Origin: Isurus oxyrinchus
Taxonomy: Eukaryota
DNA length: 64,000 nucleotides
NCBI GenBank assembly: GCA_026770705.1
Contig: JANJGN010000018.1
Span: 93,620,001 to 93,684,000, forward strand
Reading direction: 5' to 3'
Under the pieces are notes generated by a model. It was not told the origin of the DNA. It worked only from the letters and a program-made list of their open reading frames with translations, and did not search any database. Positions 21,653 to 62,890 of this stretch are shown piece by piece (position 1 is the stretch's first letter; every line of letters starts with the position of its first letter). A program made the translations under genes and the position numbers.

Positions 21653-21688
21653 TTACACTTGCTTTTGCTCCGCAAGGGCTTCTGCTTC
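21653..21688 (-). CDS. SH3BGR: Terminal exon: coding (EAEALAEQKQV*) in the short isoform, 3' UTR in the long isoform
   Basis: Strong acceptor (long C/T tract ending ttcag), phase 0; the peptide resembles the human SH3BGRL C-terminus EAEVQAKQQA*. Confidence 0.8.
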   Translation of the reverse strand, partial: EAEALAEQKQV

Positions 21689-22982
21689 CTGAAAAAAAAG
21701 AGGGAAAAGCAGAAAGAGGGGATTAATGAAAGGCAACTACTGAATCACAGAAATCAGTGTAGTTTCTCCCAAGGTCAACGTGCTGTGCAATAAACTCTTC
21801 AATAAATGTGAAATGTATACTCCCAGTAAAGCTGGAATTCAAATCTAATCTAACAGAGAGCAGTTCATAATTTGAGAGCAAACGCTTTTGGTTGTTTTAC
21901 ATAGCAACAGTAGTGGCCATTTTTAGATTTCACATTTAATTAGATCCAACTATCCAGCCTAGCTGACATATTGCTTGGCTCTGGGTGCAGTGGGAAGGAT
22001 AAAAAGGAGGCAACATCCTCTGACCAGATGCTCACTCCAAGTAAAAAGTTCCTCATTGGTGTTAGATCACTGTTATAAGGCCACAAAAATTTCTAGTCTT
22101 CAAAGTTGGAAGTAAAATAACATTTAATGAGATGTTGCATTTCACACAAAGGTTTTACATTATTCATTTTAACTTTCTTGTGGTGACCGAGTTTAAACAG
22201 TGTCACTTTTCACAGTAAAATACATCGTTGAGAGGAAATCATAAGATTTTTGGCTTATGGTGATAAAAAGTGACATTGAATAATTTACCTAAAAGGCAAA
22301 AGACTTCAGCCACAAGTCAATAGTGACAGCTTCTCAAGACAGATTAAAACAGTCATTAAGCAGATAAGGCGGCTGAAGAACAAAGTTCTGTTATTCAGTA
22401 CTAAAAACCTACTTCACTGAAACCTTGGAAATGAAACTGAGAAAAGAAGACAACATTTTTCAAATTAATGTACAAACTTCAGTCAGTTGAGTGCAAACGT
22501 AATATGCAATACAAGCGTAACACACCATGCAAGGCCCAATTTAATGCTTTACACAGTAAGAGGTTCTTCAAATATCAAAGTGATGTAAATGAAGAGAAAT
22601 AGACGTACAGCCAAACAGCCATGTGCAATTAATTCCAAGTGGTCCATTCCAGTAGACTAGTCCAGATATGATGCAACTTAATGTAAATAGCTCACCTACA
22701 GTACAACTTTCAGAATAAAATAGAATTCTTCAAATGGAGGATGCTTGGGGAAATTATATATTTTACATATTATTACTGACTAATCAGATCATTATTCATG
22801 TTATAGTGATATACCACCCACTGAGGGTAGTTATGTCTCAAGCCCAAAAAGCAGCAGTGTCAACAGGCACGAAGTTAATTCTGTATGCTTAGTCTGAATC
22901 AGGATTAGGTGGTCAGGTGCGCATTCTCTCTCATTACCTTAAACCCTTGCAGATGAAATCATATAAAAGCAAAATCATATTT

Positions 22983-23009
22983 TTAAGATTCATCCACTTC
23001 ATCCTCATC
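22983..23009 (-). CDS. SH3BGR: Stop-containing acidic exon DEDEVDES* (exon continues as UTR to 22938)
   Basis: Acceptor 'ctttttctttatttcttattgattag'; resembles the SH3BGR ending EDEDS; donor AAG|GTAATG at 22937. Confidence 0.8.
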   Translation of the reverse strand, partial: DEDEVDES

Positions 23010-23529
23010 CTAATCAATAAGAAATAAAGAAAAAGAGAAGGAAAATGAGCACAAGCAAACAGATTGTAGTAAAACTAGTGGAACATAAAACAATAACAAA
23101 GGAGAGCATAGTTACCAACACTATCCATTCATATCAGCTGAGTCACTTAGATGTTTAGGCAAAGATTCAACAATTTTTATAATCTAATGATTCGCTATCT
23201 TTTTAAAATTTAGACTCACCTCCCTGCAAAAATTTTAGCCATTTAAAATAAGCTTTTTAAAAAACACAAAAGAATTGATGGATCTTTCTGAATGCAAGGT
23301 TACACCATCTAAAAAGTTATCAAGCCACCTTTAAAGTTAATGAAATTTCCATTTGTCATAAACTAATAATTATTCAACTTGTAATGTGGAAAATATTTTA
23401 GTGAATAATCAGGTCACACAAAGGTTTAGCACATCAAATTAGCTTGTTTAGGTGCATTTACAACCAGTCACTCTTAGGCATGGTGAGAAAGAGGCTGCTC
23501 ATATATAAACTGCTCTTATATTAAAGTAC

Positions 23530-23559
23530 CTCAGTCACTGGTTCTTCTTCATCCTCCTC
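23530..23559 (-). CDS. SH3BGR: 30 nt microexon EEDEEEPVTE
   Basis: 'ttttttttaatatgtttag' | GAGGAGGATGAAGAAGAACCAGTGACTGAG | GTACTT, phase 0-0. Confidence 0.8.
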
Positions 23560-25475
23560 CTAAACATATTAAAAAAAACGAGTGGGTGTGGAGAGAAAGA
23601 GAGAAAGGAGGGACAAAGCTTAATGAAAAAGGGAAAAATAGCAATATAGAAGAAAAAAATGCAGAAAACATCCCACAACAGAACCAAAGGACTGAAGAGG
23701 TGAAGAATAGTGGTGAAGTAGTAATGGATGAAGCTGTAGCAAAAGGAAATAATGGATGTGGTTAGAATATTTGGAAATTCCAATTATTCTCATTAGGAAG
23801 AGACTGATACCTCAAACACCTACTTCCATCTTTTTTTCCCCAAAGGCATGTTCAACCTTTCCAAGTTGAAAACAGGGAAGGGCAGGACTGAGCATGGATG
23901 AGTGTTTACAATGTTCAATTGTTCAAATTTCCTTTTGTTTTTCAGACTGGATGGTTTATTGGCAACGGCTCATGTTTTAATTTTGAAGAGCCGTTATTCA
24001 GGGATGTTTAGAGCTCAGTCACGCTATCAACTCATTAAGTTTGTTAGTTGCCAATGTGGAAAAGAGTTACCCAATAATCAACAGCAGGCAATCCCTAGCT
24101 ACCCCAGAATTGTAAAACCAATAATTGCTATCCAAGTACATTTATGCCATTTTTTTGTGATACTGGCAGTGGGGGCCACTAATGGGGGTGCAGGATCCAT
24201 TATTGTAATAGAAAAGTTTAAGATATTTGTAGTTTAAAGTTTGATTTATATATAATTTTCTCCCTCTCTCAAATAGTGCAAACTGTCTGCTTAGATATGG
24301 TTCCAAACCCAGCTAGTATCCTTTCCTTCGTGACCATGATTCATGTGTGACTCTTGCCAATAGGTGTTGACACATTGTTCAAGCAAGACAGGCATCAGAG
24401 CAGAGTCTGAATGTGCCATTTGTTGATATGTACTTTGTGGGATTTATTGGTGAGCAATTAAAAAGAACCTTATATGATTTTTCTCTCATCAGTTCAGGAT
24501 TGCTGAGCCCAACTCCAGCAACGTAACAGCCAACTGCCTGAGATCAGCTGAAATCAAACCTCAATCTTTGCTAGTCTGTACAGAGTAGCAGTTAAATGTA
24601 TATGGTTGTGGAATCAGAGGATTTAAAATTATACTTCTAATTCTAAACTCGCTCCATTGTAGAAACCTGCTTACATACCCTAGGATCCTGCTGGGGTAAA
24701 AGGAGTTGATGATGGACATTTCAAAGGATTTTCCTTTGTAATCAATGACTGGTCTCTTTACTCATTGTTGACATGTTCAATGGCCAACTCAGGAATGAAA
24801 ATTTAGGATTTGGAATAAACATCCTTCCTACTAAGCCAAAAATAAAGTATGCTCTTATTCCTCCTGCATCTTCGCACTGTTGAAATGAAGACTCTGTAGT
24901 GATCTATTCCAACTCTCTTTTGGAGTGGCTCAGTCTTTTCTTCCTGAGGCAACCGAATACCCAAGTTTGTCATCACCTGCCATCTACTCCATGATTTACC
25001 TCAACTTCTCGCCTGTTATCAACCTTAGCAACAGTCAGCACCATGAACCCTAGTCTATCCAGTAGGTAAAGCCCATCACAAGCATTAAGGCTTATTATTT
25101 AAGTGAACTGCCTGCACAAAAACTGTTTTCAAAAGTATACTTCATGCGAATCCATGCAACAATGTGATTGTCAGACTGTTGATTGTAAATACTCTTTCCC
25201 TTAAAGAAGTAATCATAATTTTGCTTATATCCAAGACACTTGTGACTAGAAGAGCCATTTATAGACATGGCCCAATCCCACAAATGCACCAAATTTCTCG
25301 ACAGCCTGAATGTTATCTGGCAACAGTCAATTCCAGTTCAAAAAAGTCAATAATTGGTCAATGAAGAATATGACAATGAAATGGAAACAACGAAATGGAA
25401 ACACTACAAAAAAAAAGGATGATTAGTTAGCATGAGATGACAAAGACTGATGAGCCATTGTAACAGATTATCTAC

Positions 25476-25502
25476 CTCAGTTACAGGCTGCTCTTCTTCA
25501 TC
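25476..25502 (-). CDS. SH3BGR: 27 nt microexon DEEEQPVTE
   Basis: 'ttcatttccttgtttag' | GATGAAGAAGAGCAGCCTGTAACTGAG | GTAGAT, phase 0-0. Confidence 0.8.
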
Positions 25503-25758
25503 CTAAACAAGGAAATGAAATTATAAAACAAAAGGAGTTGGCTAATTACAAATAAAAAGTGTGAAATATGTTGGTTAGTTATAATGAGAAATCGGCAAAA
25601 TGATATGTAATCTGTACAAAACTAATGAGAACATCTTCAAGCAGTTTGAATCTGAAATGCCAGGACATGCAGGAAAACTGCAATTGTTACAAAAGATTAT
25701 CAATTAGTTTCGGAATCACCAATGGTTTTTAGATGCCTAAAGAATCTATTGATCGAAC

Positions 25759-25788
25759 CTCTGTAACTGGCTCCACTTCTTCTTTTTC
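25759..25788 (-). CDS. SH3BGR: 30 nt microexon EKEEVEPVTE
   Basis: Long T-rich tract ending 'ttttactag' | GAAAAAGAAGAAGTGGAGCCAGTTACAGAG | GTTCGA, phase 0-0. Confidence 0.75.
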
Positions 25789-26313
25789 CTAGTAAAATTA
25801 TAAATAAAAACACAAGAAAAAAAAACAAGGATGATATGGGCAAGTTAAGTGTAAAAGCACACAACCTCTTAAGAACTTTCTGACCTGCTCTAACTCCCAC
25901 TATGGCTCAACATCTACTCCATTCATCTAATTATTCTTTTTCCTGTCAACATTATTTACTTAGAAAAGGCCAAATACACACGCATTTTTTTGTTAAACGT
26001 GTGCGGCAGATACAAGTTACTGCTGGTGCAAAGCTCATGGGAATACAGTTGGGAGTGGGGAGTGAGGAGGGAACACCATGGTGATTCTAAAATGCGAAGC
26101 CAGAAAAGAAGTGGGAGGAGAATGCAATCTAGGTCAAGAAAATTTTGAACTGGGGAGAGAAGATAAAAAAAGTTCCCCAACTCTACCCAAACAATAATTT
26201 GTATTGGAAGTGTTTCCCCCTTACATTTTACTATCAATATATTACAGCATCACACACATTTATAATTTGTTCCAATAAATCCTTAGGAAAAAAAAACACA
26301 CTACTGGCCCAAC

Positions 26314-26343
26314 CTTTGATTCTGGCTGTTCCTCTTCTTTTGC
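26314..26343 (-). CDS. SH3BGR: 30 nt microexon AKEEEQPESK
   Basis: 'ctgtttgttttcatgactttgccag' | GCAAAAGAAGAGGAACAGCCAGAATCAAAG | GTTGGG, phase 0-0. Confidence 0.7.
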
Positions 26344-28521
26344 CTGGCAAAGTCATGAAAACAAACAGATGAGACAGAAGAGTGGGAGACAGGCAAACCT
26401 CTGCATTCTTGTAATTAAACCAACGCTTTAAGAACCGATTGCTCACTTGAGACGATCATGGTTATTTCTATTGAATGGAAAGAGTAATTTCCCGTGACAT
26501 TGCTCAGAGGTAGTCTGGGATCTAGGAACATGCTTAAAGTAGTTAGCTGTTAACATAACCCATTCCTGTGGGACCCCTGCTCAGGTATTCCCTGTGGGGA
26601 ACTGATCGAAGCCCTGGACCCCCTCTGTGGAACTAACTCCCTGACTTTTCCCCTTCATCCCTCCCCACCTGACCACATCTACCCTTCTTGCTTCACCTTT
26701 TAAGAGCTTTATTAAAGCCCACCTTTGCAATGAACCTTATGGTCACCTCTCCTAACTCTTCCACCATGGCCTAACGTCCACAGCCTTTTTACCTTTCTCT
26801 CTCGTAAAGCATCTAAAAATGTTTTTCTACATAAATACAAGTTGTTGTTTTACAAATGCTGCAGTACAAGCACTACACACTAAGTACCGCTCTTTCCCCC
26901 TCATTCGCCTTCAGGACTAGTGTCCTTAGTGAAGGAAATTGGAATGAACAAAACAAAGAAACTAAAGTAGAAAACATGTATTTTTTAATACAATTTCAAT
27001 AACAAGAGGTTTCAAATATGTTAGAAGTTTAGAAGAAGCATATTTGTTGAGTAGAAAGATGAACACTATAAATATTAACATGTTAGATTAATGGATAATG
27101 TGTTAGTCATGTGCCCAAAAGGGTAAAGTATTCATTCCACACCATCTTAAAAGGTAAGAGTCAATACAAACACACAAACTAATGCAATATGGCAGACAGA
27201 GCAACTCTTTGATACTGCTACAGTGTCTCAAAAGCTTGGGACTGAGGCAGTGCAGGATTTCAGAGCTTGCTCTATTTCAGGTTATGGATGGTTTGGTTCA
27301 GGTCAAGCCAGGTTGGGTGGGGTTAAGGGTCATTCACTCATGGGAGTAGACTGGCACATAAGCAGTAAAGGGGATACAAGTCAGGTGACATACCACACCA
27401 ATGGAGTGCCGAGCCAAATTGTCTAGGCAAGTTCTTTATAATTTCACTCAATTAAAATTGATGTATGGCACATTCTAAAAATGTCCAGTTTTCAGACAAA
27501 TGTAGTTTTTGGACAGCCAGATTTGAGACACAGTAACTGTACAGTGGAAGCCTACACTCAACCTGCCACCATTATGGCCCTTCTACACATTACATACTAC
27601 GATTGTGATTGAAAAGAGTTATGTGTTGATCCTAGAACTCTAACACTAAACATATTCATTTGGTTAAATATTAGCACTTGGTTCTTTTATTGGAGAGAGA
27701 TCTTGCTTTTGTGTTTTCTCACTAACATGCAATGATGCAGTCTGGTCTTTTCCAGGGGTGTTAAGAGAAGCGAAACATGGACGAACAAGCCAGTGTGTTT
27801 TCGGCATGTTAAATCCTTTTTAACTCTTCACTTGATTTAAGGAGCAAGAAAGTGAAGTTGACAAGCTATAACAATTCCCTCTGACAATACAGTTACAAGA
27901 ATGCTCCAAAGTTATCCAGGCATTTTGGGCAATACAGATCAAATTATACTAACTGCATTTGGAAGCAGTCAAAGACAGCAAATTTACCATCGCCCAATAT
28001 AATGACCAGAACTACCCACCAGCCCCCCACCCGAGTATGGCATCCTAGGAGCTTTTCAGTGAATGAGAAATCTACATAAGGAGCTTGGCAAGTTCAATAC
28101 TTTTGCCAATAAACCAGGTTCACAACTCCAGAAAAAACATAGCATCAAAAGCATTATGCTCCAGAAGTACAACTTACTTTAAATATTATATTCAGGTTAA
28201 CTTACATTCCTGATTAGAGAAAGAACAATATTCTATAACACTATCTCCCAGTCTTACAAATCTTACCTCAACTTTAAAATTAAAAATCAATGTTCATACT
28301 TCCTCCCAATCCTATTTAAAATGCCTAATCTGATCAACTGGATAGCTGTAATTAAACTGATTGCTGGCTTGAACTTTAGGTGGTTATTAAGTGATCTGTG
28401 AGTTATTAGTGTGCCTTGTTAATTGAAATGGTTTAAAGTAAGGATTAACACGGAGAACAAAATGGTTAAGCCACTCAAATGAAAAGAAAGGACCGTTTAC
28501 AGGTTTGTGAAATTCTCTTAC

Positions 28522-28593
28522 AGCCTCTGCTGGTTCAATAGCTTGATGAACAGATTCCTCAATTTTCTTAGCTTCATTCTCACCAATGTTTTC
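28522..28593 (-). CDS. SH3BGR: 72 nt acidic exon ENIGENEAKKIEESVHQAIEPAEA
   Basis: tgtgcag acceptor, GTAAGA donor, phase 0-0, Glu-rich. Confidence 0.75.
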
Positions 28594-30067
28594 CTGCACA
28601 CATCAACATCAATGTTCAAAGGAAAGCAAAGTGCAAAAGAAAAAATAATCTACCAGGTTCTAGAAGTTTGGATAAAAAAAAAACAAAACTAGAAGCTGGA
28701 AATTCAAAACAAAACAGAGAATGCTGTAAACACTCAGCAATAGCGGAGGAGAAAACAGATATGACATTTCATCAGTACTGGAAGCTATTACTAATGAACA
28801 CCATTTCAAAAAGGAACAAAACCAAATGGATGAAAATTGGTGCACATACAGAATATAAAGTGGTTGAGTGGAAAAAACAGGAGATGGTTAAATGTCGGAG
28901 GTGATATTAGCATGAACACATATTATCTCTTCCTTTGATGTAAGGAGCAAAAAGAAATCTCATCCTATTACTCTCTTCTCTCGTGCTATTACTACATTCC
29001 CACAAGACAACAATCGATGTTGGATCAATTATTAATTTTAAATCTGAGATCGACAGATTATTGGTAACCAAAATAAGTACAAAGCACAAAGTTAGGCTGC
29101 ATATCAGCCATGAGCTCACTGATTGGAAAAATAGGCTATAGGAGCTAAATGGTCTACAGGTGCTGTGTGCTGATGTGAGCATGAGACACTGGCTTACCTT
29201 CCCTTCACAGATGCACCCTGGGACACAAGTGCTCCAGTATTTTCCATTTTTGTTTCTAGCAGTTATGATGCAGTTTGACAAAAGGTTGAAAGCTAACAGA
29301 ATTGATATTCAGGAATGGTTATCAGATAGTAATTTTATCAAGGGGCTTAGATACGAGTTTCAAGTTAAAAGGATGAGAGATGTAGCACTATTACCTGAAC
29401 CCGCAAACCAAACTTACTACCTTGAAGTTACTGCATTGAAATGATTGCATACATGTATTTTATGCCAATTGAAAGTGAAATGTAAGTGATAGAAATGGCA
29501 ACAGAAGTCACATTTCTTCAATAAATGTTATGGTCCACCTTTGGCATGTTGTAACGGTCTACAAATAAAAGTTCTACCAAAAGGTCCTTTGATGGCAGCT
29601 ACAAAGTATTTAAGTTACAAAACGCCTGAAGCAATTCAAGCTACTATACAAAATAGTATACTGCACTATACAATCAATATTTTGTGGTCCACAAAATATT
29701 GAGATTAGAATTGAACAGTCCAGTACAATACTTTAATGTTGAACTGTATTAATGCAGAACTAATTTTTGACAATCCTTCACTTCATTTACTACTGCTCCC
29801 AAGGAGCTCGCTCTCTTTACAGCTGTTAATTGTTTGTCTATGAGACATCCGTTGTAGCTTAAACCTCCTTACGTCAAAAAAGAAATCAAACTTGCATTAT
29901 TGTAAATTTATATTGACCCAGGACTGTGCTTGCACAACTAGATGACTTCCACCCACACACAAAATTATGTCAAAGTGAAAAACAGAATTAAAGAGTTGTA
30001 AAAAAAGCAAGCACAAAAACATACACCACACGCACACAAAAAGCAACGCAAGCAAATACATAATTAC

Positions 30068-30163
30068 ATTTATATCTGTTGACTGTTCAAAATGATTATG
30101 CAACATTTCAATATTTTCTTCAAGCTGATCTTCTGCAGCTATATGCAAATGCTGCTCATTGCC
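30068..30163 (-). CDS. SH3BGR: 96 nt exon GNEQHLHIAAEDQLEENIEMLHNHFEQSTDIN
   Basis: 'tcttgatttttcactttggtag' acceptor, GTAATT donor, phase 0-0, open frame. Confidence 0.65.
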
Positions 30164-31569
30164 CTACCAAAGTGAAAAATCAAGATAAGAGAAAACAGTT
30201 GCATCATGCGAAGATGTTGCAGACAAGATGAATAATTGAGACAGAGAGCAGGAGAGCAGTATTCTTTTCTGTTAACCAAGCTAAAAATGATTAGAGACAG
30301 AAAAAAATGCACATAGCATCCTGGCCTTTTCTGTATTCCAGTTTTTACAAATGTCTATGATTAGGGTAATTGAAAATTTGGTTTTACTGATTATCACTGA
30401 TAATTCTACATTTCTTTTGTGGCATGGTGATTTGGTTAAATCCAGTTTCCCCAATTTGAAATACACAAGCTTTCTTAATTTCCCAGCATTTTCTTTCCAA
30501 AAATTGCAGCTGGAGATTGCACAGGATTTACAAACCAGAAAGGATAATCCCTGAACTTACTCACGTTGATATTTGTCCGGTGTGTAAGCAATAATCCTAT
30601 CCTATGTACCTATTGTTTCCAAATTCCTATACTTCTCTTTCCTTTGATCACCCATCTTAAAAGTTCATATTGTCTCTATTCTAGGAGTGTACCCATAGCC
30701 TCAGAAGCCACAAAGGTCTTTCATGTTCTCTCCTGAATCTTCTACATTTAAATTTTTCATCTCTTATACACATTCCCATTTTAGACACCTCAATCAACGG
30801 AAGGGATCCATTTCTACCTACTTTATCCCTGCATAAATTTTAAACACCTGCAACAAGTCACCCTTTAATCATCTCTGATGGGGAAAAACTATTGATGCGA
30901 TCTTGTAGCTCAGAAGCATTCAGCATATTGTGCCAATGTCATCCCTCTGAAAGAACTATCCAATCAGCCCCATTTCCTTATTCTTTCCCCACAGACCTGC
31001 AAGTTTTTCTTGTTCAAGAATACATACAATTCTCTTCTGAAAGCTGCTGGTGAATTTGCTTCCAGAAGGCTTTTGGGTAGTGCATTCCAGATCAGAACTT
31101 GCTGCGTAAAATAAAATTTACATTTCCCCTCTGAGCTTTTTTGCTGATCATTTTATGCTGGTATCCTCTGGTTGCCAACACACCTGAGTGGAAACAATTT
31201 CTCCTTCATAAGCTTGAACACCCCCATTAAATGATCCTTTCAGCTCTGCTCCAAAACAACCCCACCTTCTCTAGTCTCTACAGGTCAGAAATTCCTCACC
31301 CCTGGTACATCTCCACTGCACTCTGCAAGTTCTTGATACCTTTCTGAAAATTAAGTGGTCAGAATTGGACATAATACAAGTGGAGACCCAACCAGTGACT
31401 CATAGAAAAGGGTTAGCATAACTTTCGTTCTTTTTTAATCATTTCCCTTTTTGTAATACCAAAGAACAACAGTGATCAGCTCTTAATCAAAGATCTCGGA
31501 AAGCTTCTCTTTTTAGCAGCTTTATTAACTTGCCCTGCCACCTTCGAACATTGGTGTATGTAAATTTCC

Positions 31570-32105
31570 AGGGACAGAACATAACCCTCGATGGGCAGAC
31601 AGGTGCCCTACCCGACTGAGCATAAAATAATGCGTGATGACGTCGGGCGAGCGTCCCGACATCGCTGCGCACTCACGCGATATTTCAGTCAGTGGGCACG
31701 CGCCGGAATCTGCAGCACGCCCGCCGACAATTAAAAGGCCTATTAAGGCCATTAAAATTATAATTGAAAAGAATTTTTTGCTGCCTGTCCAACCTTACCA
31801 GAAGTGGAGACCCAACCAGTGACTCACAGAAAAGGGTTAGCATAACTTTTGTTCTTTTTTAATCATTTCCCTTTTTGTAATACCAAAGAACAACAGTGAT
31901 CAGCTCTTAATCAAAGATCTCGTCTAGCTTCTCTTTTTAGCTTCTCTTTTGTGGTGCAGGCAGGCAAAAAGGCCAAGCAGCCTTTGCAATTTTTAGGAAA
32001 TCTCATCCACGGGCGGGATGAGGTTTCCAACAGCAAGTAAAAATAAAATTAAAATGTTAACATTTTGTTAATAACATGTCCTCCCTGCTCATGTGACAGA
32101 GACAA
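31570..32105. mobile_element. GC-rich non-autonomous DNA-transposon-like element interrupted by a 140 bp copy of flanking DNA
   Basis: Shares blocks with 18340-19030; 31802-31941 duplicates 31378-31517. Confidence 0.6.
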
Positions 32106-34180
32106 CTCACCTAATTGCACCCCTCGTAACCCTGCAAATTGTTTATCTTCTCTTTTGAAGGCCTCGCTTGAACCTGCCTGCACCACACCCTCAGGCAAGG
32201 CATTCCAGGTCCTAAATATCGGCTGCATAAAAAACTTTTGCCTCATGTCACCATTGTTTCTTTTGCCAATCACCCACCGTAAATATGTGCCCTCCAATTC
32301 TCAATCCTTCGGCCAATGGGAACAGTTTCACCCCATTTACTCCATCCAGGCTCTCATGATTTTGAGCACCTCTATCAAATCTCTTCTCCAAGGACAATAA
32401 CCCCAACTTTTCAAACCTATCCATGTAACGGAAGCTTATCATCCCTAGAACCACCTAGTGAATCTTTTCCACATTATAACACTTCCTAAAACGTGGCGCC
32501 CAGAACTGGGCACAATACTCTGGTTGAGGCTGAAGCAGTATTTTACACAGATTTCCTTATTCTTGTACTCTTTGCTCCTATTTGTAAAGCCCAGGATCCT
32601 ATATGCTTTATAAACCATTTTCTCAACCTTCCCTGACACCTTTAATTACTTGTGCACATATAAGCCCAGATGCCTCTGCTCCTGCATCCTCTTTAGAACT
32701 GTACCCTTGTATTTATTGTCTTTCCTTGTTCTTCTTACCAAAATGAAGAACTTCACACTTCTCTGCATTAACTTTCATCTGCAATTCCACCAGCCCATCT
32801 CCTCTAAGTTTATCACTATTGTCCTCACAGTTCACAATGCTTCCAAGTTTTGTGTCATTGCAAACTTTGAAATTGTGCCCTCAATTACACTCAAGTCTAA
32901 CTCATGAATACACACCAAGAAAAGCAGGGGTCCTTACACTGACCACTGGGGAGCCCCACTGTATACTTTGCTTCAGTTCAAAAAGCACCATTCATGACTA
33001 CTGTTTCTTGTGTCTCAGCCAATTTCATATCCATGCTACCACTGTCCCTTTCATCCCATGGATTCTAACTGTGCTGACAAGCCAGTTATGTGACACTTTA
33101 TCAAACTTCTTTTGGAAGACCATGCACACTTGTTCACTTTGGCAGGAATAATGGAGAAGTGGTATATTATTTAAATGCGGAGAGATTGCAGAATTTGATG
33201 GTATGGGGAGATTTGGGGGTCCTGGTACATGAATCACAAAGTTAATATGCAGGTACAACAAGTTATTAGGAATGTTAATGGAATATTGTTGTTTATTGCA
33301 AGGGGAATGGAATATAAAAGCAGGAAAAGTTTTACTGCAGCTGTACAGGGAATTGGTGAGACCACATCTGGAATACTGTGTAAAGTTTTAGTCTCCTTAT
33401 TTGAAAAAAAAATAGACAATTGCATTAGCAGCTCAGAGAAGGTTCACTCAACTCATTCCTGGGATGAAGGGGTTGGTCTTATGAGAAAGGTTGAACAGGT
33501 TGGGCCGATACCCATTGGAGTTTAGAAGAATGAGAGGTGGTCTTATTGAAGCATCAGATCCTGAGGGGACTTGATTGGGTGGATATTGGAAGGATGTTTC
33601 TCTTGCGGAAGAGACTAAAACTAGGGGACATAATTTAAGAATAAGATGTCGCCCTTTAAGACTGTGATAAGGAGAAAGTTTTCTTCTCAGAGGGTCATTA
33701 GTACGTGGAATTCCCTTCCCCAGAAGGCAGTGGAGGCTGGGTCTGTGAATTTATTCAAGCTGAGTTAGATTTTTGATCGAAGAGGGAGTCAAGGGGTTAT
33801 GGGGGCAGACAGGAAAGTAGAGTTGAAACCAGATCATTCACAATCTTATTGTATGGTGGAGCAGGCTTGACGGGCCAAATGGCCTACTCCTACCTTCCTA
33901 TATCAACCACATTACCCTCATCAACCCTCTCTATTGCCTCATCAAAAAAACTCAAGTGAGTTAGACATAAATTGCTCAAAAAATTCATGTTGGTTTTCCT
34001 TAATTATTCCACACTTGGTGAAGCAACTGTTAATTTTGTCCCAGATTATTGTTTCTAAAAGCTTTCCCACTACTAAGGGAAACTGACTGCCCTGTAACTG
34101 CTGGGCTCATCTTTACACACTTTTTTGAACAAGGTTTTAACATTTGCAATTCTTCAGTCTTCTGCCACCACCCTGTATCT
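32105..34180. mobile_element. Nested CR1 fragments: minus-strand copy (32105-33125, resuming 33895-34180) interrupted by a plus-strand 3' copy (33125-33895)
   Basis: Minus ORFs 'FQKKFDKVSHNWLV..HGMKGTVVAWI' and 'RQKFFMQPIFRTWNALPE'; plus ORF 'QVQQVIRNVNGILLFIARGMEYKS'. Confidence 0.8.
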
Positions 34181-34585
34181 AAACAGTAACATATCAGCTC
34201 CGCAATACAAATAACAACATGGTTACAACATGATCATTATGAGAAAACTGATGTTTGTAAAAACTGGAAACTTGAACTGCAACATTGCTTCAGTTGGACA
34301 AGTTCACAGTTCAAATAACGCCTCCATTTTGCCCTATCAATTGTCCCATATAGTTAGTAGTTGTAAAACATGTCGTAAACAGATCCAAATTCTGTCCTAT
34401 TACTATGTGCCAACCAAGAAGCAATTATGCAGCTCCTGAACAGAGTTCTAACCAGAAAATGATCTGCATTGCGTACTTCAAAAGCACCAAAGAAACACAC
34501 TGACAGTTGGATAAGTGTTAATTCAAATGAGGAAGTGGAGCAAGACAGAAAACATAAAAGAGAAAGAAATTTAAGGCTTAATTAC

Positions 34586-34648
34586 TAAGTCTCCTTTATC
34601 ACTTTCTGGAACTTCACCGTTCTGGATGATTGTAGCCTGATGTGCTTC
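34586..34648 (-). CDS. SH3BGR: 63 nt exon EAHQATIIQNGEVPESDKGDL
   Basis: Strong acceptor 'tttcctttgtttgcttttgctccgctacag', GTAATT donor, phase 0-0. Confidence 0.75.
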
Positions 34649-36109
34649 CTGTAGCGGAGCAAAAGCAAACAAAGGAAACCCAGAATTGTATATAAATTAT
34701 TAACTAGCACACAAGAGGAAAATATTTCATTGAACTCCCCCGTCTCAGATTCAGTGTAATAAAAACGACAAAACTGACATTTAGTAAGTTTGAGTGTTGG
34801 TCATCGTCCATTAAGAACTTAAGTCTTCATAAGGTTCAGAAACCAATTTTTTTGAAATTGCCCCTCAAGTTTTAGATTAGACCAAAAAAAAGCATATCAA
34901 TGAAGTAGCATTTATCTTAAGCTATGTACAAAATACCTACAACAGGACTCAAAAGCCCAACTCTTCCAATACACTGTATCTGAAATATGATTATAATGTG
35001 CAAGGTAAACATGAAAGCAAAAAATAAACATGGCATTATAGAAGTCATTTATCTATCTTACACATTGCAAAAATAGCATTCTTACATATGCTGTTAACAG
35101 CAACATGCAAGAGCTTGCAATGTGTAATCCAACATTTTGACCTGAATTAATTGCTAAAACTCTTTCTAGTTACTACATTCAAGAAATTGATTAAAACAAC
35201 ATGTGCCTTGTGAAGATAGTAACATTACTCTCATTTCTGGAATCTAGGCTCAAATGCAGTTCAGACTAATGGGATGAAAGTGACTTTTGCTTGCTACCAA
35301 GTAAACTGTATTGGGTAATTCTCAACTTAGTTCCTGGTGGTTGTTGGCCCAGTGTATGTACTGGCACCTTGCTGGCAATCTCACTCAGGCAGGTCATAAA
35401 AATGACTGGCACTCTAAATAGAAAAGTGTTATACTGGTGCAGAAGATGGCTCTCTTCTGAGGCTGGGCTTAAGGTGGAGATAGAAAAAGCTTACTTTTGC
35501 ATCCAACCACCCTGTCACCAAATGGAAGTAATCAATGCTCACACCAGGTTCCCACAACTAAAATAGCATTGCTTCTCCTAGCCCTCAAATCACACATGAT
35601 GAACAGAGAAAGTGCATGGGGCAAAAAAAAAAAAACCAGATTAAAGAAAACAATCTTTTTTTTCCTCCTACAAATTGGACAAATAAAAACATAAAACTTT
35701 GGTCTCCATTTTTAAGAACATATAAATGAATGAGTGGTACAGTGCACTAGATCTCTGGCCCCTGGAGTCATAATGCAGGGGGAATGCCAATTTCATTCCA
35801 GAAACCTGTACATCATTCTGTAGTGTGTCTACTGTCGATTTTATAGAGAAATATCTGATATTCGCCCTTTTTAATTTCCCCTGCTCCAACCATTTCACAG
35901 GTTGACTTTTCATTTGTTTATAGCCTGGGAGTAGGGTTCCCACTGGTTGGAAAGCACAGAAATCCTTTATAAGTAAAAGTGCATAACTCTCAAAAAATAG
36001 ATTTAAAGCTTTTGGGCTGGGAGTTTCCATTAGGTTGTGTTATTTTAATTCAGTACAATTTGCCCAAAATAGGCCAACGGTATCAACATTGCTGAGAAAA
36101 CACCAACAA

Positions 36110-36670
36110 TAAATTGGGAGCCACTGATAACCAGAACTGTACTTGACCAGCCACATCAACAATGGCGACAGGAGCAGGGCAGAAATTGACTATTTTGCTT
36201 CCTGATCCTGCAAGCTTTAACCACATTCTACAAGGTCCAAGTCACGAGTGTGATGGAATACTCATCATTCACCTGGACGGCTAAAGCCTCAATAACACTC
36301 ATGAAATTTAGCGCACTCCAGAACAGAGAAGTTAATTTTGATTGGTGTCCCTACCATCAGATTCAATATTCACCCCCTCCCTCTATCAATGGCACACTGT
36401 GGCTACAAAATATACAATTTAGAAGTTACAATGCAGCAACTTACCAAGCCCACCTTTACCATAAGAACATATCCAAGCTCCCTTCCAGGCAACCACACCA
36501 ACCTAATCTGTACACAAATTGCACCTTTCACCATAGTTGAATCAAAATCCTAGAAATTCCTACTCCACAATTGTAGGAGCAACTGTGCATCATGCAGTAA
36601 CTCTAGTAAAAGGCCAAACACCACAAACTAAGGATCATCAATAAATTTAGATTTGCTAGCATTTTCCACA
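36110..36670 (+). mobile_element. Old family B LINE 3' fragment
   Basis: ORF 'MMEYSSFTWT..' matches 'VMEYTPLTWM' in the copy at 40700-43290. Confidence 0.65.
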
Positions 36671-37017
36671 TCTGGAGAGCAAGCATAAAAAGCCAGCTCT
36701 GTGCTTAGGGTGAGACCACCAGTTAGTACCCAGAGATACAAAAAAAAGATGCTGCAGACTTGAACACACCAAGTACTTAGCAGAATACTCAAACTAAATC
36801 CACAATAGAACCCTTGGAGCTGGCAGAGATTAAAATGTCATCCCATCAGTCTGTTTAGTTCTCACCTCAAGTCTCAGGGGTGCAAGGAGATGTACTAACC
36901 CACTTTCTTCCCAATCCACTCAGGAAGGATTATTTTAATACTTAAAATGTTATAATTTTACTAACATTAAAAATTTAAACTTACTTTATCTAGAGATGAA
37001 TGCGTATGGTGTTATCA

Positions 37018-37158
<141 letters not shown>

Positions 37159-37883
37159 CTACAGTGTCAAGATAATCAATGACTTAAAAATCTGGAACAT
37201 GTTTGCATTGCATCAACAAAGAGGCATTTAGATAACACTGGAAATGTCAATAAAAGATCATTACAATAAGATCTGATGTGCAAGTCTCAGGAAGAAACCA
37301 GAAAATCATTCTTCATTTAAAAAAAAATTAGTCTTTTGTTCACATTTTTTCTTCACAATAATGCCCAATTTGATGGACCCAGATGAATGACACCTAATAA
37401 CAGCAAATAACAAAGTCCCTATATCTTTGCAAAGTAGGCCTAAATTTAGAGGTTTCAGAGGCAATTGCCTGGAGTAAGTTTTAATGTCAGGCTTGCCAGG
37501 GGAGGCAGGAAGTATGCTTGAAATGGCATGGCTCCATTACACAAGTCCTTGCTTTTTACTAAAAATTGGGTGGTGTCAAAATTGCTTCTGGTAATCAAGC
37601 AGGTTTCAATGCTAAAGGTTCAATAGCAGCCTGCATCAGTTGGATGAATGGTAATAAAGTATTACAAATATGCTATAGCCAAGTAAGAGGGCATGCATGC
37701 AGTAATGATAAAGTCATAATACTACTACAATTATAACAATAATTAACCACACCAAACTCATTTGGAGCTTAGGAATTAAAAATAATCAGAGGGATGTGAC
37801 ATGGTATATAATAGGCTTGCACACATCATCTCACGACCAACTATCCTCTAGCTCAGAAATAATTGTTAACAGAAATGCAATCA

Positions 37884-38159
<276 letters not shown>

Positions 38160-40339
38160 TCACTGTTGAGTTGTGTACGTGGAAATAAGCCAAATGAGGC
38201 AATAAATAAAGCCGAGGAAGAGGTGACAGTCCTATTATAATTTTGCTTATTAATCTTATAATGTAAATACATGAATTCCACGAGCAGTTTATTGCTGGAT
38301 GGCCATTCCTTCCAATAGCACAGTTAAGGATTTGTTAAATGCATTGTACATATAGATGGTGAATGAGATGTCAGTTAAAGGACACTAGATATACATTTCA
38401 ATTTACCCAACCACTTTCTCAACTGAAGCAATGATAGTTGGTGATTGCATGCAATCCAAATAACCTATTGCCAAATACCCAATACCGATGAGTACGTTTA
38501 ATGAGGGATGTTGCGGGGTGGGGGGGGGGGGGTGAGGAAGGTGGGAGATGGTAGTGGAGATTCGGTCCCAGTTTTCCAGGTTTCCCTAACATGATGCAGA
38601 ATTTTGATTTCACACAGTATGCAATTTATTTTGGTATGAGACCTCCATCTGGAAGTCAACCCATATAACAAGCTTGACTTCTAGTCAGGCGGGGAGTACT
38701 CTGAGGCAAATCACAGTTAAGGAGCCTGAAGCTACTAGCGGGAGCAATTCTAGGGAGGAAGAGAAACTTGTTGGGCTTTGAGGAGGCATGGGGTGTTTAG
38801 GGGGAGAACCTCAGGTTCTCCAGGCCCTCAGCAGTGCTGTGAGGGCACTTAGCTTTTCCCCCAAAGGTGTCCTCACCACCCTTGAGTTGCTGGGTTTCCT
38901 GCTAGGGTTAAACCTGGAAATCTGGACCAAGAGCTGGAAAGTAGGTTCAGGCTGAGTAGCTCATTTTCAGCTAGCAGAGCCATGATGGGCTAAGTGATCT
39001 CCTTGTGTGCCATATTTTTTTCTGTGCTTCAATGGATGCAAATCACATTAAAGTGAGGCTTCCACATCTGGTAACAGGTTAGGTATCACCAGTGTCATCT
39101 CTACTAAACACTGAAGTGAGTGAATTGGAAGCTGGATGGATTGGATTTCAGATTTTAAAAGGGTTTCACATCTTATCTGACCCCAACCAATCAGTTTTGC
39201 ATTGGGAGGTTAAAACTCTCACCAAAGTGTCTGAAAGGCAATTGTTTTTTTGAATGCCTACCATCAACAGTACCCTACATAAATCTCCCAACTTTGCAGC
39301 AAACCCCAAGTGTCAGACTCATTTCCACTCCCACTACTGAACTTAAAAATTATGCTCATCAAAACAGGCATTACACTTTCCACAGACCATAAATCCTATT
39401 CACAAAACCTGAACTAGAATACAGTGCTAGCGACATCTTGATCAGGTGGTGAGAATTATAAATAATTTTAAAGTTTTGGAATGTACAGGTAAATTAAAGA
39501 TTAAGGAAGGCATGACCAGAAATTTAGCATGGTAGCAAACTGTGTAGTAAAGAGAGAACGACAGTTACATTTTACAAAATCTTGAGAGAGGAGATGTACA
39601 AAACAAAGAACATGATTAAATATAAAACGGATAAGAAACATCAAGTCTTTAAAGAATTGCCATAAGTTAAGAGAATTCCAAAGTTTCTTATATTAGCACA
39701 AATGGTCACGACTAAATGGTCACAAGGTTTTGAAGGAAACCTTTAAATTTCCATTCAGAAATTCTCCAAAAGGAAGAACTAGGGAAAAGAAAATAAGTTA
39801 GCAAGCTCAGATGAACAATAAATAAGTCAGAAAACTCAGATCAACAATAATTTTGACCTCCATTGTATATTTTAGGAAAGGGACAATCAGGGGCACAAAC
39901 AGGAAATCTTTAATGACTACTTCTTGCTTTTATGAAAACTGTTAGTTATCAGATTTAATACAATAATTAACACATCTCAAAAAGCTCGAGTCAAAATAGA
40001 CTTTGAGACTTGAGTGGACCTGCTTTATGTACTCGTAAGGTCATTGGTTTACAGCAACTGAACAAGCCAAATTCAGTTTCGACTACAAGAGGTTCCAGTT
40101 TTATTAGTGTTCTGGAAAGCAAATTCTGAGGATTTATTATTAGTCCTAAATATATTTGACGACTAAATGTGTAATTTTTTTGTTTATAAAGATTAGGATT
40201 TTCATCACAGGTTTGAGAATCGCCTTCCGCAATTTGCATCTTTATGGAGAATAAAAATGCGATCAGCAGTCTTGGTTAATATTTATGTCGGAGCTAAAAG
40301 TGAGAAATTTAAGCAAATTTAAGTCTATAATTCTCTACA

Positions 40340-54045: not shown

Positions 54046-54049
54046 CGGC

Positions 54050-55925: not shown

Positions 55926-55983
<58 letters not shown>

Positions 55984-56003
55984 CACGCGCACACATGTGC
56001 ACG
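55926..56003. repeat. (TG)26 microsatellite continuing into CG/CA alternation
   Basis: 78 bp of unbroken purine-pyrimidine alternation. Confidence 0.95.
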
Positions 56004-58290: not shown

Positions 58291-58959
58291 TTGTATAAGT
58301 TTTATGTTTTTATACGGTCACCAAGCTCTCCAACCAAGAGAGAGAACCACAAACTGCAGAGCCGCAGTCCAGCAAGTAGCAAATTGTTGTTAGAGATTTT
58401 TAAAATGTTAAATTTTATAATTTTTTTCTTAATTTTCCTCCCTTCATGAAACCTTTACCTCACTTTATTTCTTTTTCTGTAACTGCTTTGACTCTAATTT
58501 ACCCCATTTCCTTGGTTTCTTCCTCAATCCTGAAATCACATTGGTTAAGGAGATAAACTGTCCCCTCATTCACTAACCTCCCAGGTGCCCCTTATTAATT
58601 CGCACTTCCACCAATCCAAAAACAAAATACTGCAATGCTGGAAATGTAGCAGAAAATATGTTTTCAAGTTGAAGGGGGAGGGAATAAAGTCTGACTAAAA
58701 GGGCATGCTAGGAGATCTCCCACTCCAGAAAATTCAGGGCCAATTCCAGTGCGGCACTGGAACAGCTTAAAATATGGGTTCATATGCTGGGCTGGACTCT
58801 GAAGAAACATGAATGTGATCAACATGCAATAGACCACTAATTTCTACCCATTGCCTGGCTCACCTTCTTGAAACCACACTATTCTAGCTTGATTCCTTTG
58901 TTTCCCAATGAAATCAGTTCATCCCGAAAAAACGTGTATCTCACAAGTGAACAATTACC

Positions 58960-59590
58960 TGCTCGTAAGTATGGCTTCACATTCTGTCCCCTCCTATTTA
59001 TTATCTATACATGGCCATTTGGTAATATTATCTGTAAGCATAGGATCAGGTTTCATATGTATGTTAAATGATACCCAGCTAAATTACTTGCCTTCACCGT
59101 TGACTCCAAAGCTATCTGGTTCTAGTTGACTAACATCAAGGTCTGGATGAGTCACAATTTCCTGCAGCTGAAGTATTGACAAAAACGAAGCCATCCTTTC
59201 CGGTTTCTGCCAGCATCCATGACCCTTTACATCTGTCCTATCAACTTACTCAGCTGCTCACTCTTGCTAGCTCGGATGGCCCACAATGTCCACATCCAGT
59301 TTAATCTTGAGCTAATCTCTATCTGTTGGAAACTAACTTTTTTCTACCTCAGCAACATTTCCTATTTGCATTCCTTCCTTCCTCTGTCATAAAAATCCCA
59401 ATCTGTCTTAAAGACTGATTTATTTTCTAACCAGCCTCATTGTATCTATTGTTTACAAAATTCAATTGATCCAAAACTCTGAAACCCTGGCTCAGATCAT
59501 GCACTCCCATTCGCACTCTCCATGCTAAGCCTTAAGATTGTTAGTGAAAAGGAAACTAGTAAGTTTCTTGCCCTTGCTTAAAAAAATCCC
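58960..59590 (+). mobile_element. Degenerate L2 LINE RT fragment
   Basis: 'PLLFIIYTWPFGNIICKHRIRFHMY..DTQL' matches L2 RT around the YADD motif. Confidence 0.7.
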
Positions 59591-62149
59591 ACCACAGCCC
59601 TGAAAAACTCAGCAGGCCTGGCATTTTGTTTTTATTTTATGTATTCTCTGACTCTGGATCACAAAGTTCCAATTCGATTCCACTTCTCATTAGCCAAGAC
59701 TACAGTAAAACTGACAACAGCTAATATGGCAGACTTGCAAAGCAAAACCCGATCCTGCTTTCACCGAACATACATTTGAGCACTTTGCAACAGAGACCAC
59801 TGAACAGGATTCAGGCGTAGGAACTCTGGCAGATCATTTTTCTGCTCCCTGGCTCAGGGTATTAAGATCAATTCTAGCAAGGCAAACTCCTGCCCTTGAA
59901 ACCAGCTAAGTTAGCAGCGAATCAAGCCTGGGACTTTCTGGTCTATATGACATAGTGCCAGGTAGAAAATGTGATGCATTTAAACCACAATCCCATTGAA
60001 GGAAATATGAGAAATATTTTCTTAAATCTCATCATAACTGAATTTTGAAACAACTCAACTTTTACCTGGTGCCTCTGGGTACCATTTCAAAACACCACAG
60101 TGAACCACACTGAAAACTACAAACAACCAAAGGAAAAAAGACTATTGTTTAGTAGTATTTCTCTTCCCCTCCAAAAAATACTTCTTCAAACTTCATTCTT
60201 GCAATTTGGCACCACTAACAAGGTCTGCAATTATTGCAGAATGCTTGTCACCGTTAAGCAGGTGGTTGAGAACCACCTCTTTGAACCATAACTTGAGTAA
60301 AAATATTCCCAGGTTGTTATCTTTACCCAAGAGAAAATGGGTCTCAAGGGTGAAAAATAAAATATAAATAGGAATGCCAGATGATACACTTTTAAACATG
60401 TAAGCAGGCCAATCACTACGCAGTAGTCAGGCCTCAGCTACAGTCCTTCATAAAATAGATACAGATGAGGTAGGCCATTGGGCCCATTTTACAATAGCCA
60501 TCCAGCAAGACAGGCAATGATCACAGTTCCAAGAATACATGAGATAACAGCAGGTTTCCCTTTTGAGGGGGAATTAAATGGAACTCTGCTTATTAGAGCA
60601 ATGCTGTGCAATTTGCAAAACCATACAATGTTAGCAAATATACTACATAATTAGTATATGTATTAGTATTTAGTAAAATTAGTTAGAAAGCAGCAACTGG
60701 ATCTTTTCCTTTGCATGTGGATGGCATCTAGCTTTTAATTGTTTAACAACTGGGGAGCAAAATATCAGAACCCTATCCTTCCTAAAAAAAAGATTCAGGT
60801 GAAGATTTAAGTTGAAATGTACCACAGTTGTAAAATCAACTAGTTGTACAAATTTTAGGTGTCAATATGTTTTACTCCTCAGTCAACATCACAAAAGACA
60901 GATCTTGTGACATGATAGTCATTATTACATGTTAGTTTGACGGAGTTTGCTCTGCACAAACTGACTGTCACATTTCAGTGTTATAACAGTGACTACATTT
61001 CAAAAAGTACTTCGTTGGCTGTAAAGCACTTTGGGATGTCCTGTCTCTTAACCCCTCCGCTGCCCCGCCTAATCTATGACATGCTTCTACTTCTTTAACC
61101 AAGTCTCTGTCCTGATAACCCATTTTGCAGCACAGAGTCAAATTTTGCTTGATGTCTATTCCATGAAGTGCCTTGGAATGTTTTACTATAATGACAGCAC
61201 TATATAAAATACAAGTTGTTCTAGGATTATACCACTTGGCATGCCACACTTCCTTGTAAATGACCAAAGGGGTGCTGAAGGAGTTGTGTGTGCAGGTGCA
61301 TAGTTCTACGACAGATGCAAGTTAAAAATAGGAAATCAGGATAAATTTCATCTAAAAAGTGCTCTCTAATACGATCAGTTGTAAAGGTTATTGAGAAGCT
61401 TTTCTTAGCATTGGTCAGCATGACAAATGCAGTTAATTTAAATTATCCTATTGCCTTTTTAAGTTCTGGCTTTCATCATGTAAATACCATGGGAGAATGG
61501 AGGTGGTGATATGAATGCACAAATTATACATGTGCAACACCATTTATACATACTTTTACAGTGGATACCTGAACAGTGATCAGTAGTGAAAACCATGGTT
61601 GATATTTCCCCTCCATAGCTCAGGTGCACTGAGAACATGCGAGGAGGGAACAAAACTTCTGTTGACTATGAAAACTAGATTACATCTTCCCATCAATAGC
61701 ACGAGTAAACAAAACGAAGCTTCCCACTCTCTTGCTCTCCCCCTCAATAACCAGTGTATACGGTGGGCACCTTCTGATCAATTTCATAGTTAAAAAATAC
61801 AACCCCTGTAAAATTTAGAAGCACTTTTTCTGCAACTGAGTCCAAGAAGCATAATCAAAAGGAACTTTAGCCTTAGCCCTTTACTTACGGGTTCTGCTCT
61901 TTAATCCATTAACTAAAGAGGCTTAATAAAACGATATTTTAAGATAGAATTTAACTTGAAAAATTTAGACTATTTTTTGCCTCCTTTCAAAGTTTTGCCC
62001 CTCCTTTTTCTTATGCCATTGCCTTTGTTGGGATGCAGCTTTACTGATGGTCACTATCCAGGATTTTGCCACTCTTAAATGTAACTAGCGAAAGTTGCCA
62101 GGCCATTTTACCAAAAGGGCAGTAGGGCGAGCTTCATTTAGCTTTTAGA

Positions 62150-62520
62150 AACATACGCGCATAGATTTTCAGAGCCAGTTACCAGTCAATAATCAGGTAC
62201 AGGAACCCTTGCTGATGTTTCCCTGCCTGAGTCAGAGTACCACCATTCCCCCACCTCCATCATCCAGGCTGAGATCAATTAACTCAGCAGAGACTAGGAG
62301 GAGCATCACAGCTAAGGCCACATTAATACAGATACCCTGCCAACACGGATCTCTGGACAGCAATTAAGACCAGCAACCCCAAAAAACAAGTTTCTCTTCC
62401 CTAGCCCCGGAGGGCTGACGTCTTCCAAAACGCCGGCACATTCAATTTCGCTCAATCAACTTAGTGATCAGTGACTGGATTCGATACCTTGCAGTTCTGT
62501 ACAGCTCAGTTACCCTATTG
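62150..62520 (-). mobile_element. LF-SINE-like remnants (similar pieces at ~15050-15300, 19050-19260, 24300-24580, 59690-59970)
   Basis: Minus strand 'ctgctgagttaattgatctcagcc...catcagcaagggttcctgtacctgatt' resembles LF-SINE consensus from memory. Confidence 0.5.
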
Positions 62521-62845
62521 TCTTAACCATGGTGGAAACCCAAAACTTGTAATCTGCAATATAGTAAATACAGCTCGCGCCCTGCTACACCAAACTGTTA
62601 AAATGAGTGAAATACTTTATACACGAAAACAAAATTAAATGATTTTAATTATTTATTACTAATTTTTTTTACGGGTAAGTTTAAGTTCTGGAAAATTCTG
62701 TGTGCAGTGTGGGGAAGTGTGTGTGTGTGAGAGACTGATTGCTGTTCTGGGTCTGGTATGCGTTATCAGCTGTACTGGATATAAAAAGAAACGCTGCTGC
62801 GCGGTGCATGGAGAAGGAGACGAAACTTAAATAAGCCTCACTTAC

Positions 62846-62890
62846 CGCGGTGGAACCGGACTGGCTTGCAATAAAGACTTTGATAACCAT
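62846..62890 (-). CDS. SH3BGR: SH3BGR-family exon 1 coding part, MVIKVFIASQSGSTA
   Basis: ATG in strong Kozak context (atcATGG), 45 nt, GCG|GTAAGT donor; matches the family N-terminus MVI(K/R)V(F/Y). Confidence 0.95.

Follow-up and report, generated by a model that had tools for sequence, protein, structure and literature searches.

The stretch of DNA described here is a window of 64,000 nucleotides (nt) from the 4.98 Gb genome of the shark Isurus oxyrinchus, located at positions 93620001-93684000 of contig JANJGN010000018.1 (C18). The window carries the shark SH3BGR gene, the muscle-type member of its family, which is read through two splice routes. Mapping of shark isoforms placed 12 exons in the window, all on the minus strand and all in phase 0, with AG acceptors at each of the 12 and GT donors at every exon except the last. 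The nearest named proteins are shark SH3BGR isoforms, with exon 2 being identical. The exon coordinates and single-exon motifs proposed in an initial annotation of the window were all recovered at their places on this strand. Splice joints were taken from assembled contigs of four runs (X1, X2, X6 and X7), mapped onto positions 19500-38400. These belong to a list of 23 runs, none recorded as RNA and 17 guessed to be RNA. Contig depth was not used as a measure of expression, and the joints described are those in the 15 rows shown, with 175 further rows outside this set. The features of the gene are as follows.

62846-62890, minus strand: coding part of exon 1, 15 amino acids (aa), with a GT donor; identical to residues 1-15 of protein P0143.
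37962-38147, minus strand: exon 2, 62 aa, predicted thioredoxin-fold core (PF04908); joined to exon 3 in all four runs.
37078-37158, minus strand: exon 3, 27 aa, with a phase-0 donor that is the branch point of both routes; joined to 21688 in X1, X6 and X7.
34586-34648, minus strand: acidic cassette a1 (the "NG" cassette), 63 nt, with counterparts from chimaeras to mammals; joints not among the contig rows shown.
30068-30163, minus strand: acidic cassette a2, 96 nt; RefSeq isoforms occur with and without it.
28501-28593, minus strand: acidic cassette a3, 72 nt to the donor at 28522 or 93 nt to a second donor at 28501; joint 28522-26343 in all four runs.
26314-26343, minus strand: acidic micro-exon a4, 30 nt, from contig joints and isoform mapping.
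25759-25788, minus strand: acidic micro-exon a5, 30 nt, from contig joints and isoform mapping.
25476-25502, minus strand: acidic micro-exon a6, 27 nt, from contig joints and isoform mapping.
23530-23559, minus strand: acidic micro-exon a7, 30 nt, from contig joints and isoform mapping.
22938-23009, minus strand: stop cassette a8, 72 nt, with eight codons and TAA at 22985-22983; joint 22938-21688 in X2 and X6.
21653-21688, minus strand: coding start of the shared last exon, 11 aa and TAA, the homologue of SH3BGRL exon 4; part of the 3′ untranslated region (UTR) when a8 is included.
19044-21652, minus strand: 3′ UTR of the last exon as far as the contigs reach; the X7 record covers 19044-21687.

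The long form of the protein consists of 228 aa encoded by exons 1-3 and the eight acidic exons, which run in phase 0 to a stop as originally proposed. It is identical to Carcharodon RefSeq isoform X1 (P0143) at 225 of 228 positions. The short form, of 115 aa, results from the direct joining of exon 3 to the exon at 21688, ending in PPPGSK-EAEALAEQKQV and a stop; it matches Heterodontus XP_067897266.1 (P0161) at 110 of 115 positions. Products of 228 and 115 aa are already annotated in RefSeq for sharks and rays (Carcharodon XP_041067640.1; Heterodontus XP_067897266.1) through automatic models that are often named "adapter SH3BGRL-like". A third class of RefSeq model reads the acidic exons and then the short tail. 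The longer form of a3, with the donor at 28501, matches models from Scyliorhinus and Mustelus. As the stop of the long form lies in the preceding cassette a8, the exon at 21688 is non-coding in that form. This stop is positioned 45 nt before the a8 donor, which marks the last exon junction. The two tails had been described as splice alternatives. Both forms do exist, but the exon at 21688 is a last exon shared by them and not an alternative end.

The direct joint from exon 3 to 21688, which defines the 115-aa form, is present in three of the four runs, and the joint from the stop exon to 21688 in two. The last six acidic exons are linked by five joints, all of which are found in X2 and X6, three in X7 and two in X1. 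Every contig joint shown has GT-AG ends. Among the rows shown, X2 lacks the direct joint while X1 and X7 lack the stop-exon joint, a run pattern that fits sample-specific switching between the forms. Three other joints (37078-34648, 34586-30163 and 30068-28593) do not appear in the 15 rows shown, their support coming from RefSeq models of related sharks. Thus, of the two junctions singled out by the initial annotation for leaving exon 3, the one to 21688 was found and the one to 34648 was not among these rows.

The PF04908 domain scores 152-153 bits in P0143 and P0161 and 95.6 bits in exon 2 of the window, against a cut-off of 21. Exon 2 contains PLPPQIF, and the protein has a single cysteine (in YCG) with no CXXC or CXXS; the presence of PLPPQIF and the absence of these cysteine motifs are given as features of the family in the available passages of PMC12827327. 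The short form aligns over its full length, tail included, to human SH3BGRL (PDB 1u6t) with an E-value of 1.5e-53, from which we infer a thioredoxin fold for shark SH3BGR. A search of the ESM Atlas returned family-level matches only. The tail of the long form has 124 residues, 47 of them D or E and six K or R, making it a Glu-rich extension as in SH3BGR. Its net charge is -42 in P0143, and judging from composition only it would be disordered.

SH3BGRL, also called TPEC (PDB 1u6t, 1wry; Chiloscyllium XP_072450853.1), shares its length class, exon plan and tail with the shark short form, which is identical to tenrec SH3BGRL at 85 of 115 positions. However, SH3BGRL is a separate gene in this genome, found on contig C9 (exon 3 at 49708634, last exon at 49685011). 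It is without acidic cassettes, and the core of the window gene is only 62-64% identical to it. The last exons of the two genes agree at 21 of 24 nt (p 0.001 in 1000 codon shuffles), which upholds the earlier view of the short tail as the homologue of the SH3BGRL tail. Because of this match, the last exon of the window gene is regarded as ancestral. For two genes with 64% protein identity over exons 2-3 this is a high value, and it would be produced by a later transfer from SH3BGRL into shark SH3BGR, whether by gene conversion or by copying of the exon. The genes reside on different chromosome-scale contigs, however, and the likeness ends with the coding part (the UTR being compared by eye), with the stop codons two codons out of register. 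Moreover, the motif is kept in SH3BGRL from chimaeras to birds, so that strong constraint explains the likeness and a conversion event appears highly improbable. Cassette a1 was also considered as a copy of the last exon, since both start with GAAGCA, but found no support (p-values of 0.92 and 0.56 against codon shuffles).

The distribution of the tails was followed in a set of 577 collected proteins, from which 67 without the full exon 2-3 core were dropped. Classes were assigned by best core match, and the rows counted stand for isoforms or cluster representatives and do not amount to independent species. An end of the EAxALA type is present in 29 of 164 cartilaginous-fish SH3BGR proteins (three directly after exon 3 and 26 after cassettes), in none of 191 bony-vertebrate SH3BGR-type proteins, in 44 of 62 SH3BGRL and in none of 93 SH3BGRL2. 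The acidic tail occurs in 153 of 164, 113 of 191, 0 of 62 and 0 of 93 of these, respectively. The short tail is found in six named species (Scyliorhinus torazame, Mobula hypostoma, M. birostris, Hemitrygon akajei, Narcine bancroftii and Heterodontus francisci), all of which keep a frame of 9-11 residues. This bears out the expected coding-type conservation of EAEALAEQKQV in other chondrichthyans. Three chimaera proteins (P0192, P0196 and P0197) end in a strongly diverged exon of 18 residues, which may be the counterpart of the short tail. Among the short relatives of sturgeon SH3BGR (120 of 211 matches listed), teleost short forms have acidic ends and none has the SH3BGRL-type tail. The ancestral product was probably the short form, whose tail bony vertebrates appear to have dropped.

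It could also be argued that the short form has no function and arises as a by-product when exons are skipped, its last exon staying similar only as sharks evolve slowly. There is no protein evidence for the short form, the chimaera counterpart is strongly diverged, and bony vertebrates seem to manage without the tail. Yet in X1 and X7 the direct joint is carried by the main contig of the 3′ UTR, the reading frame of the tail is retained in the six sharks and rays named above, and the 24 coding nucleotides match SH3BGRL while the UTR behind them, as judged by eye, does not. A by-product is therefore very unlikely. One further protein in the set, the unnamed P0398 of 324 aa, has three SH3BGR-type domains in tandem.

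The genome holds three long-type genes of the family: the window gene on C18 and the genes on C9 and C6. A tree built from exons 2-3 (40 rows, 89 columns) groups the window gene with SH3BGR (85/89), the C9 gene with SH3BGRL (91/79) and the C6 gene with SH3BGRL2 (100/99), and midpoint rooting makes SH3BGRL2 the outgroup (100/99). Over exons 2-3, the C9 gene and Chiloscyllium SH3BGRL share 96% identity. A shark-only duplication giving rise to the window and C9 genes was rejected (p-AU 0.032). Since the tree alone is weak, it is synteny that decides the identity of the window gene as SH3BGR. Upstream of it lie a Lebercilin exon at 93.707 Mb of C18 (plus strand), an exon of the CHD5/GET1 family at 93.78 Mb (minus strand) and BRWD at 94.02 Mb; these are matches at family level, from which we infer the paralogue names. 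In human, GET1, LCA5L and BRWD1 are presumed to lie on one side of SH3BGR in the same order as the upstream neighbours of the shark gene. B3GALT5 is taken to lie downstream of the human gene. The predicted synteny thus held for the GET1, Lebercilin and BRWD families but not for B3GALT5. The absence of B3GALT5 beside the window gene would be a local rearrangement or loss, and is not defining against three other neighbours.

There are three BRWD loci, and each has one long-type gene at a distance of 0.36-0.6 Mb in the same relative orientation; a second Lebercilin gene stands beside the C6 gene. The three loci look like copies of one chromosome segment, consistent with the early vertebrate genome duplication. 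The initial annotation had proposed that the locus may keep the state before the duplication, with two isoforms later partitioned between paralogues. The locus is not itself a pre-duplication one, as the gene has the neighbours of SH3BGR, SH3BGRL (C9) and SH3BGRL2 (C6) exist as separate genes, and each of the three long-type genes has a BRWD gene nearby. The orthologue by neighbours and tree is bony-vertebrate SH3BGR (Latimeria XP_064413282.1, Acipenser XP_058886800.1; chromosome 21 in human), whose core is 74-84% identical to that of the shark and which has acidic tail modules in common with it. The difference is that shark SH3BGR also reads the SH3BGRL-type last exon, which none of the 191 bony-vertebrate SH3BGR-type proteins does.

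The core had further been described as a mosaic of SH3BGRL-like and SH3BGR-like motifs. This description does not stand. QQDV(V/L)GF is also found in sturgeon, gar and teleost SH3BGR, and the majority of fish SH3BGR rows carry DIA-NE(E/D). Every SH3BGRL2 row and every non-mammalian SH3BGRL row has YCG, the three mammalian SH3BGRL rows having YRG. As these motifs are spread over fish SH3BGR, SH3BGRL and SH3BGRL2, they are old shared states. On this sequence comparison, the supposedly mixed core is best described as retained ancestral sequence, the shark gene having changed less than the mammalian genes used for comparison. In the same way, the EAEALA-type last exon after exon 3 is a shared ancestral trait and no sign of membership of SH3BGRL.

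The acidic modules, namely the NG cassette, the PVTE-type micro-exons and the final acidic-Ser motif, recur in chimaeras, sharks, coelacanth and sturgeon, and partly in amniotes. The tail was therefore present in SH3BGR by the origin of jawed vertebrates. A scan for acidic cassettes gave no candidates in the 23.5 kb intron 3 of SH3BGRL on C9 and none behind exon 3 of SH3BGRL2 on C6; the same scan recovers four of the seven true internal cassettes of the window. A looser scan gave four weak candidates on C9. The micro-exons a4-a7 resemble each other (five of six pairs at p<0.05, uncorrected), and a likely relic lies between a3 and a4:

26888-26924, minus strand: likely degenerate cassette, 37 nt, with an in-frame TGA; its homology is suggested by the best BLOSUM match in the intron.

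This relic resembles a cassette used in rays, Heptranchias and Pristiophorus. The likeness of a4-a7 together with this probably dead cassette indicates that the acidic block grows and shrinks by exon turnover. The cassettes were probably gained in intron 3 of SH3BGR after the SH3BGR/SH3BGRL duplication, a reading favoured because one gain is simpler than two losses.

In the opposite scenario, the common ancestor of SH3BGR and SH3BGRL already made both tails. After the duplication the acidic exons would have disappeared from SH3BGRL and the short tail from bony-vertebrate SH3BGR, while shark SH3BGR would have retained the two. Shark SH3BGR does have both forms and a slowly changing core, the acidic modules are at least as old as jawed vertebrates, and a specialisation of bony-vertebrate SH3BGR on the long form fits the protein counts. 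An acidic tail may also be present in the fly homologue. Separate and full losses are needed, however, as no SH3BGRL or SH3BGRL2 protein of the set has the acidic tail and no cassette was found in either shark paralogue by the scan above, although relics of cassettes would not be expected to survive for so long. With a single gain being simpler, an ancestor with both tails seems doubtful. The broader version of this scenario, in which the vertebrate ancestor had one pointed-end capper gene that switched tails by splicing, genome duplication split the forms and only cartilaginous fish keep the switch, is likewise considered unlikely.

In the preferred reading, that of a later gain, a four-exon ancestral gene would have been duplicated with its chromosome segment before the split of sharks and bony fishes. 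SH3BGR would then have gained its cassettes, partly by tandem duplication of micro-exons, while the old tail stayed coding in cartilaginous fish and was apparently lost in bony vertebrates. Any subset of the cassettes keeps the frame, since every cassette is in phase 0. Cassette a8, the sole one to bear a stop, would act as the switch. When it is included, the acidic motif would close the protein, and the old last exon would turn into 3′ UTR. When it is left out, the SH3BGRL-type tail would be read, with or without acidic cassettes before it. Stops within 50-55 nt of the last junction usually escape nonsense-mediated decay, and the position of the long-form stop would place it in this zone.

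A number of points weigh against this reading. Teleost short forms exist, and in the unnamed protein P0448 exon 3 is followed by just five acidic residues. The loss in bony vertebrates is read from the 191 proteins (top matches, with many isoforms per species) and not from DNA. In the 89-column tree, neither the placement of the shark gene with SH3BGRL (p-AU 0.395) nor that outside SH3BGR and SH3BGRL together (p-AU 0.293) is rejected. Orthology depends on synteny with the presumed human gene order. The adjacency of B3GALT5 was not found, the nearest PF01762 match on C18 being at 95.58 Mb, 1.9 Mb away and on the other side (at least 30 matches, from 34 candidates). The outgroup sampling is without sequence from lamprey, hagfish, amphioxus or any other invertebrate chordate. 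The runs are only guessed to be RNA and are represented by contigs, the organisms, given in code, differ slightly from the window, and the tissue is unnamed. No splice-regulator motif clearly stands out near the eight cassettes. Within 200 nt of them there are one downstream and one upstream RBFOX motif (0.6 expected), four downstream QKI motifs (1.1 expected), 17 CELF-type motifs (9.5 expected) and 21 upstream PTB-type motifs (9.8 expected); six motifs were tried, these are raw counts set against expectation with no significance test, and they were not used. Finally, in the available passages of PMC12827327, SH3BGR itself is left out of the analysis of actin capping.

Several observations concern the surroundings of the exons. 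Among the teleost isoforms P0440-P0450, the five-residue exon of P0448 may correspond to the stop cassette of the shark gene or else to the old last exon. An exon at about 56432-56382 on the minus strand matches an alternative N-terminus of Cetorhinus isoforms (P0024, P0025, P0031 and P0036); its first codon is GTG, with an in-frame ATG five codons on and a GTAAGT donor. Upstream of exon 1, at 63091-63290, there are a MEF2-like site and four CCAAT boxes clustered within 140 nt, and no CArG box was found above position 60000 of the window. The promoter may be bidirectional, as the Lebercilin gene lies farther on, on the opposite strand. Very high summed contig depth at about 3000-7700, 9700-11000, 31500-34000 and 35900-36500 in all runs mapped corresponds to interspersed repeats.

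A search of the genome for the family gave seven matches, and six family genes are counted. One of these is a second gene in the window, of SH3BGRL3 type, which lies tail-to-tail with SH3BGR:

6697-6744, plus strand: predicted exon 1, 16 aa, without contig cover.
14360-14527, plus strand: exon 2, 56 aa, PF04908; the nearest solved relative is SH3BGRL3.
16026-16154, plus strand: exon 3 to the stop; contigs start at 16022 and 16034.

This neighbour is intact, with three exons, GT-AG introns and a predicted protein of 114 aa. A second gene of this type, of 97 aa, is located at C6:139888961-139897682 (plus strand), tail-to-tail with SH3BGRL2, for which a last-exon candidate lies at C6:139941898. 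Both neighbours score best against solved SH3BGRL3 (PDB 1t1v, 1j0f, 1sj6), the window neighbour with an E-value of 1.5e-16 as against 7e-6 to SH3BGRL2, and the window neighbour shares with SH3BGRL3 the shorter exon 2 (56 codons). The closest candidate for SH3BGRL3 in this genome is a gene on contig C21, to which the window neighbour is identical at 43 of 77 positions, having an end longer by 21 residues, and the C6 neighbour at 28 of 77. The two neighbours agree with each other at 27 of 78. Such low identity among the three genes suggests old age. In addition, C9:53035549-53035658 (plus strand) is an intron-less join of exons 2 and 3 of the C6 neighbour (69 of 71 and 37 of 39 nt; 96% identity). 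It is a fragment of a young processed retrocopy, and the C6 neighbour must therefore have been spliced in the germ line. No SH3BGRL3-type neighbour was found in the 90 kb around the C9 gene.

A second contig mapping used runs X5, X7, X11 and X12, with 15 rows shown and 41 beyond them. Among the rows shown there is no splice joint of the window neighbour and no cover on its exon 1. Cover is continuous in X5 and X7 over 14530-18451 (its intron 2, exon 3 and beyond), with breaks near both splice sites. This cover nears the 3′ UTR of SH3BGR at 19044 and could represent a retained intron, a long UTR or read-through, from either strand.

The family is described with four members in the available passages of PMC12827327. 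As the same tail-to-tail arrangement is present on two sister segments, an ancestral pair is suggested. The balance tips slightly towards an ancestral locus that was itself such a pair, with SH3BGRL3 derived from the partner and not itself the fourth SH3BGR copy, and with six genes in sharks against the four described for mammals. If confirmed, the two extra SH3BGRL3-type genes would change the history of the family.

The proteins of the SH3BGRL group have been reported to block pointed-end growth of actin (PMC12827327, in part). In the simulation presented there, the SH3BGRL tail contacts actin at V43, M44, M47 and I63 and is near tropomodulin. SH3BGRL binds better with Tmod3, unlike the tail-less SH3BGRL3, and the C-terminal tail is given as the main difference between isoforms, with an effect that is still unclear (same passages). 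SH3BGR is described as the muscle member linked to Down-syndrome heart defects (PMC12827327, in part), and mammalian SH3BGR is placed at the sarcomere of striated muscle (PMC8541172, in part). SH3BGR isoforms are not mentioned in the available passages of PMC11377721, PMC11954525 and PMC7662092. A literature search, with most subscription journals outside its coverage, gave nothing on the evolution of SH3BGR isoforms, on shark SH3BGR or on extra SH3BGRL3-type genes, nor any discussion of the automatic shark and ray isoform models.

At the Zone-1 actin contacts (residues 8-17, 39, 40 and 46), the shark core is identical to mouse and tenrec SH3BGRL at 12 of 13 positions. Both shark forms are predicted from this likeness to cap actin pointed ends. 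The core would bind the pointed end as SH3BGRL does, and the short form would serve as a second SH3BGRL-like capper that keeps the proposed contacts with actin and tropomodulin. The acidic tail would replace or displace the SH3BGRL-type contacts, changing the partners of the protein, likely in muscle.

Cassette exons with a stop in the second-last exon are an ordinary mechanism and the isoforms are already on record, so the surprise is modest. What the locus offers is a likely case in which a new protein tail was assembled within an intron and the former last exon was reduced to UTR. The shark gene provides a natural series on one core, with the short tail, the acidic tail, and an acidic spacer followed by the short tail. 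As the core is identical throughout this series, the role of the acidic tail is directly testable.

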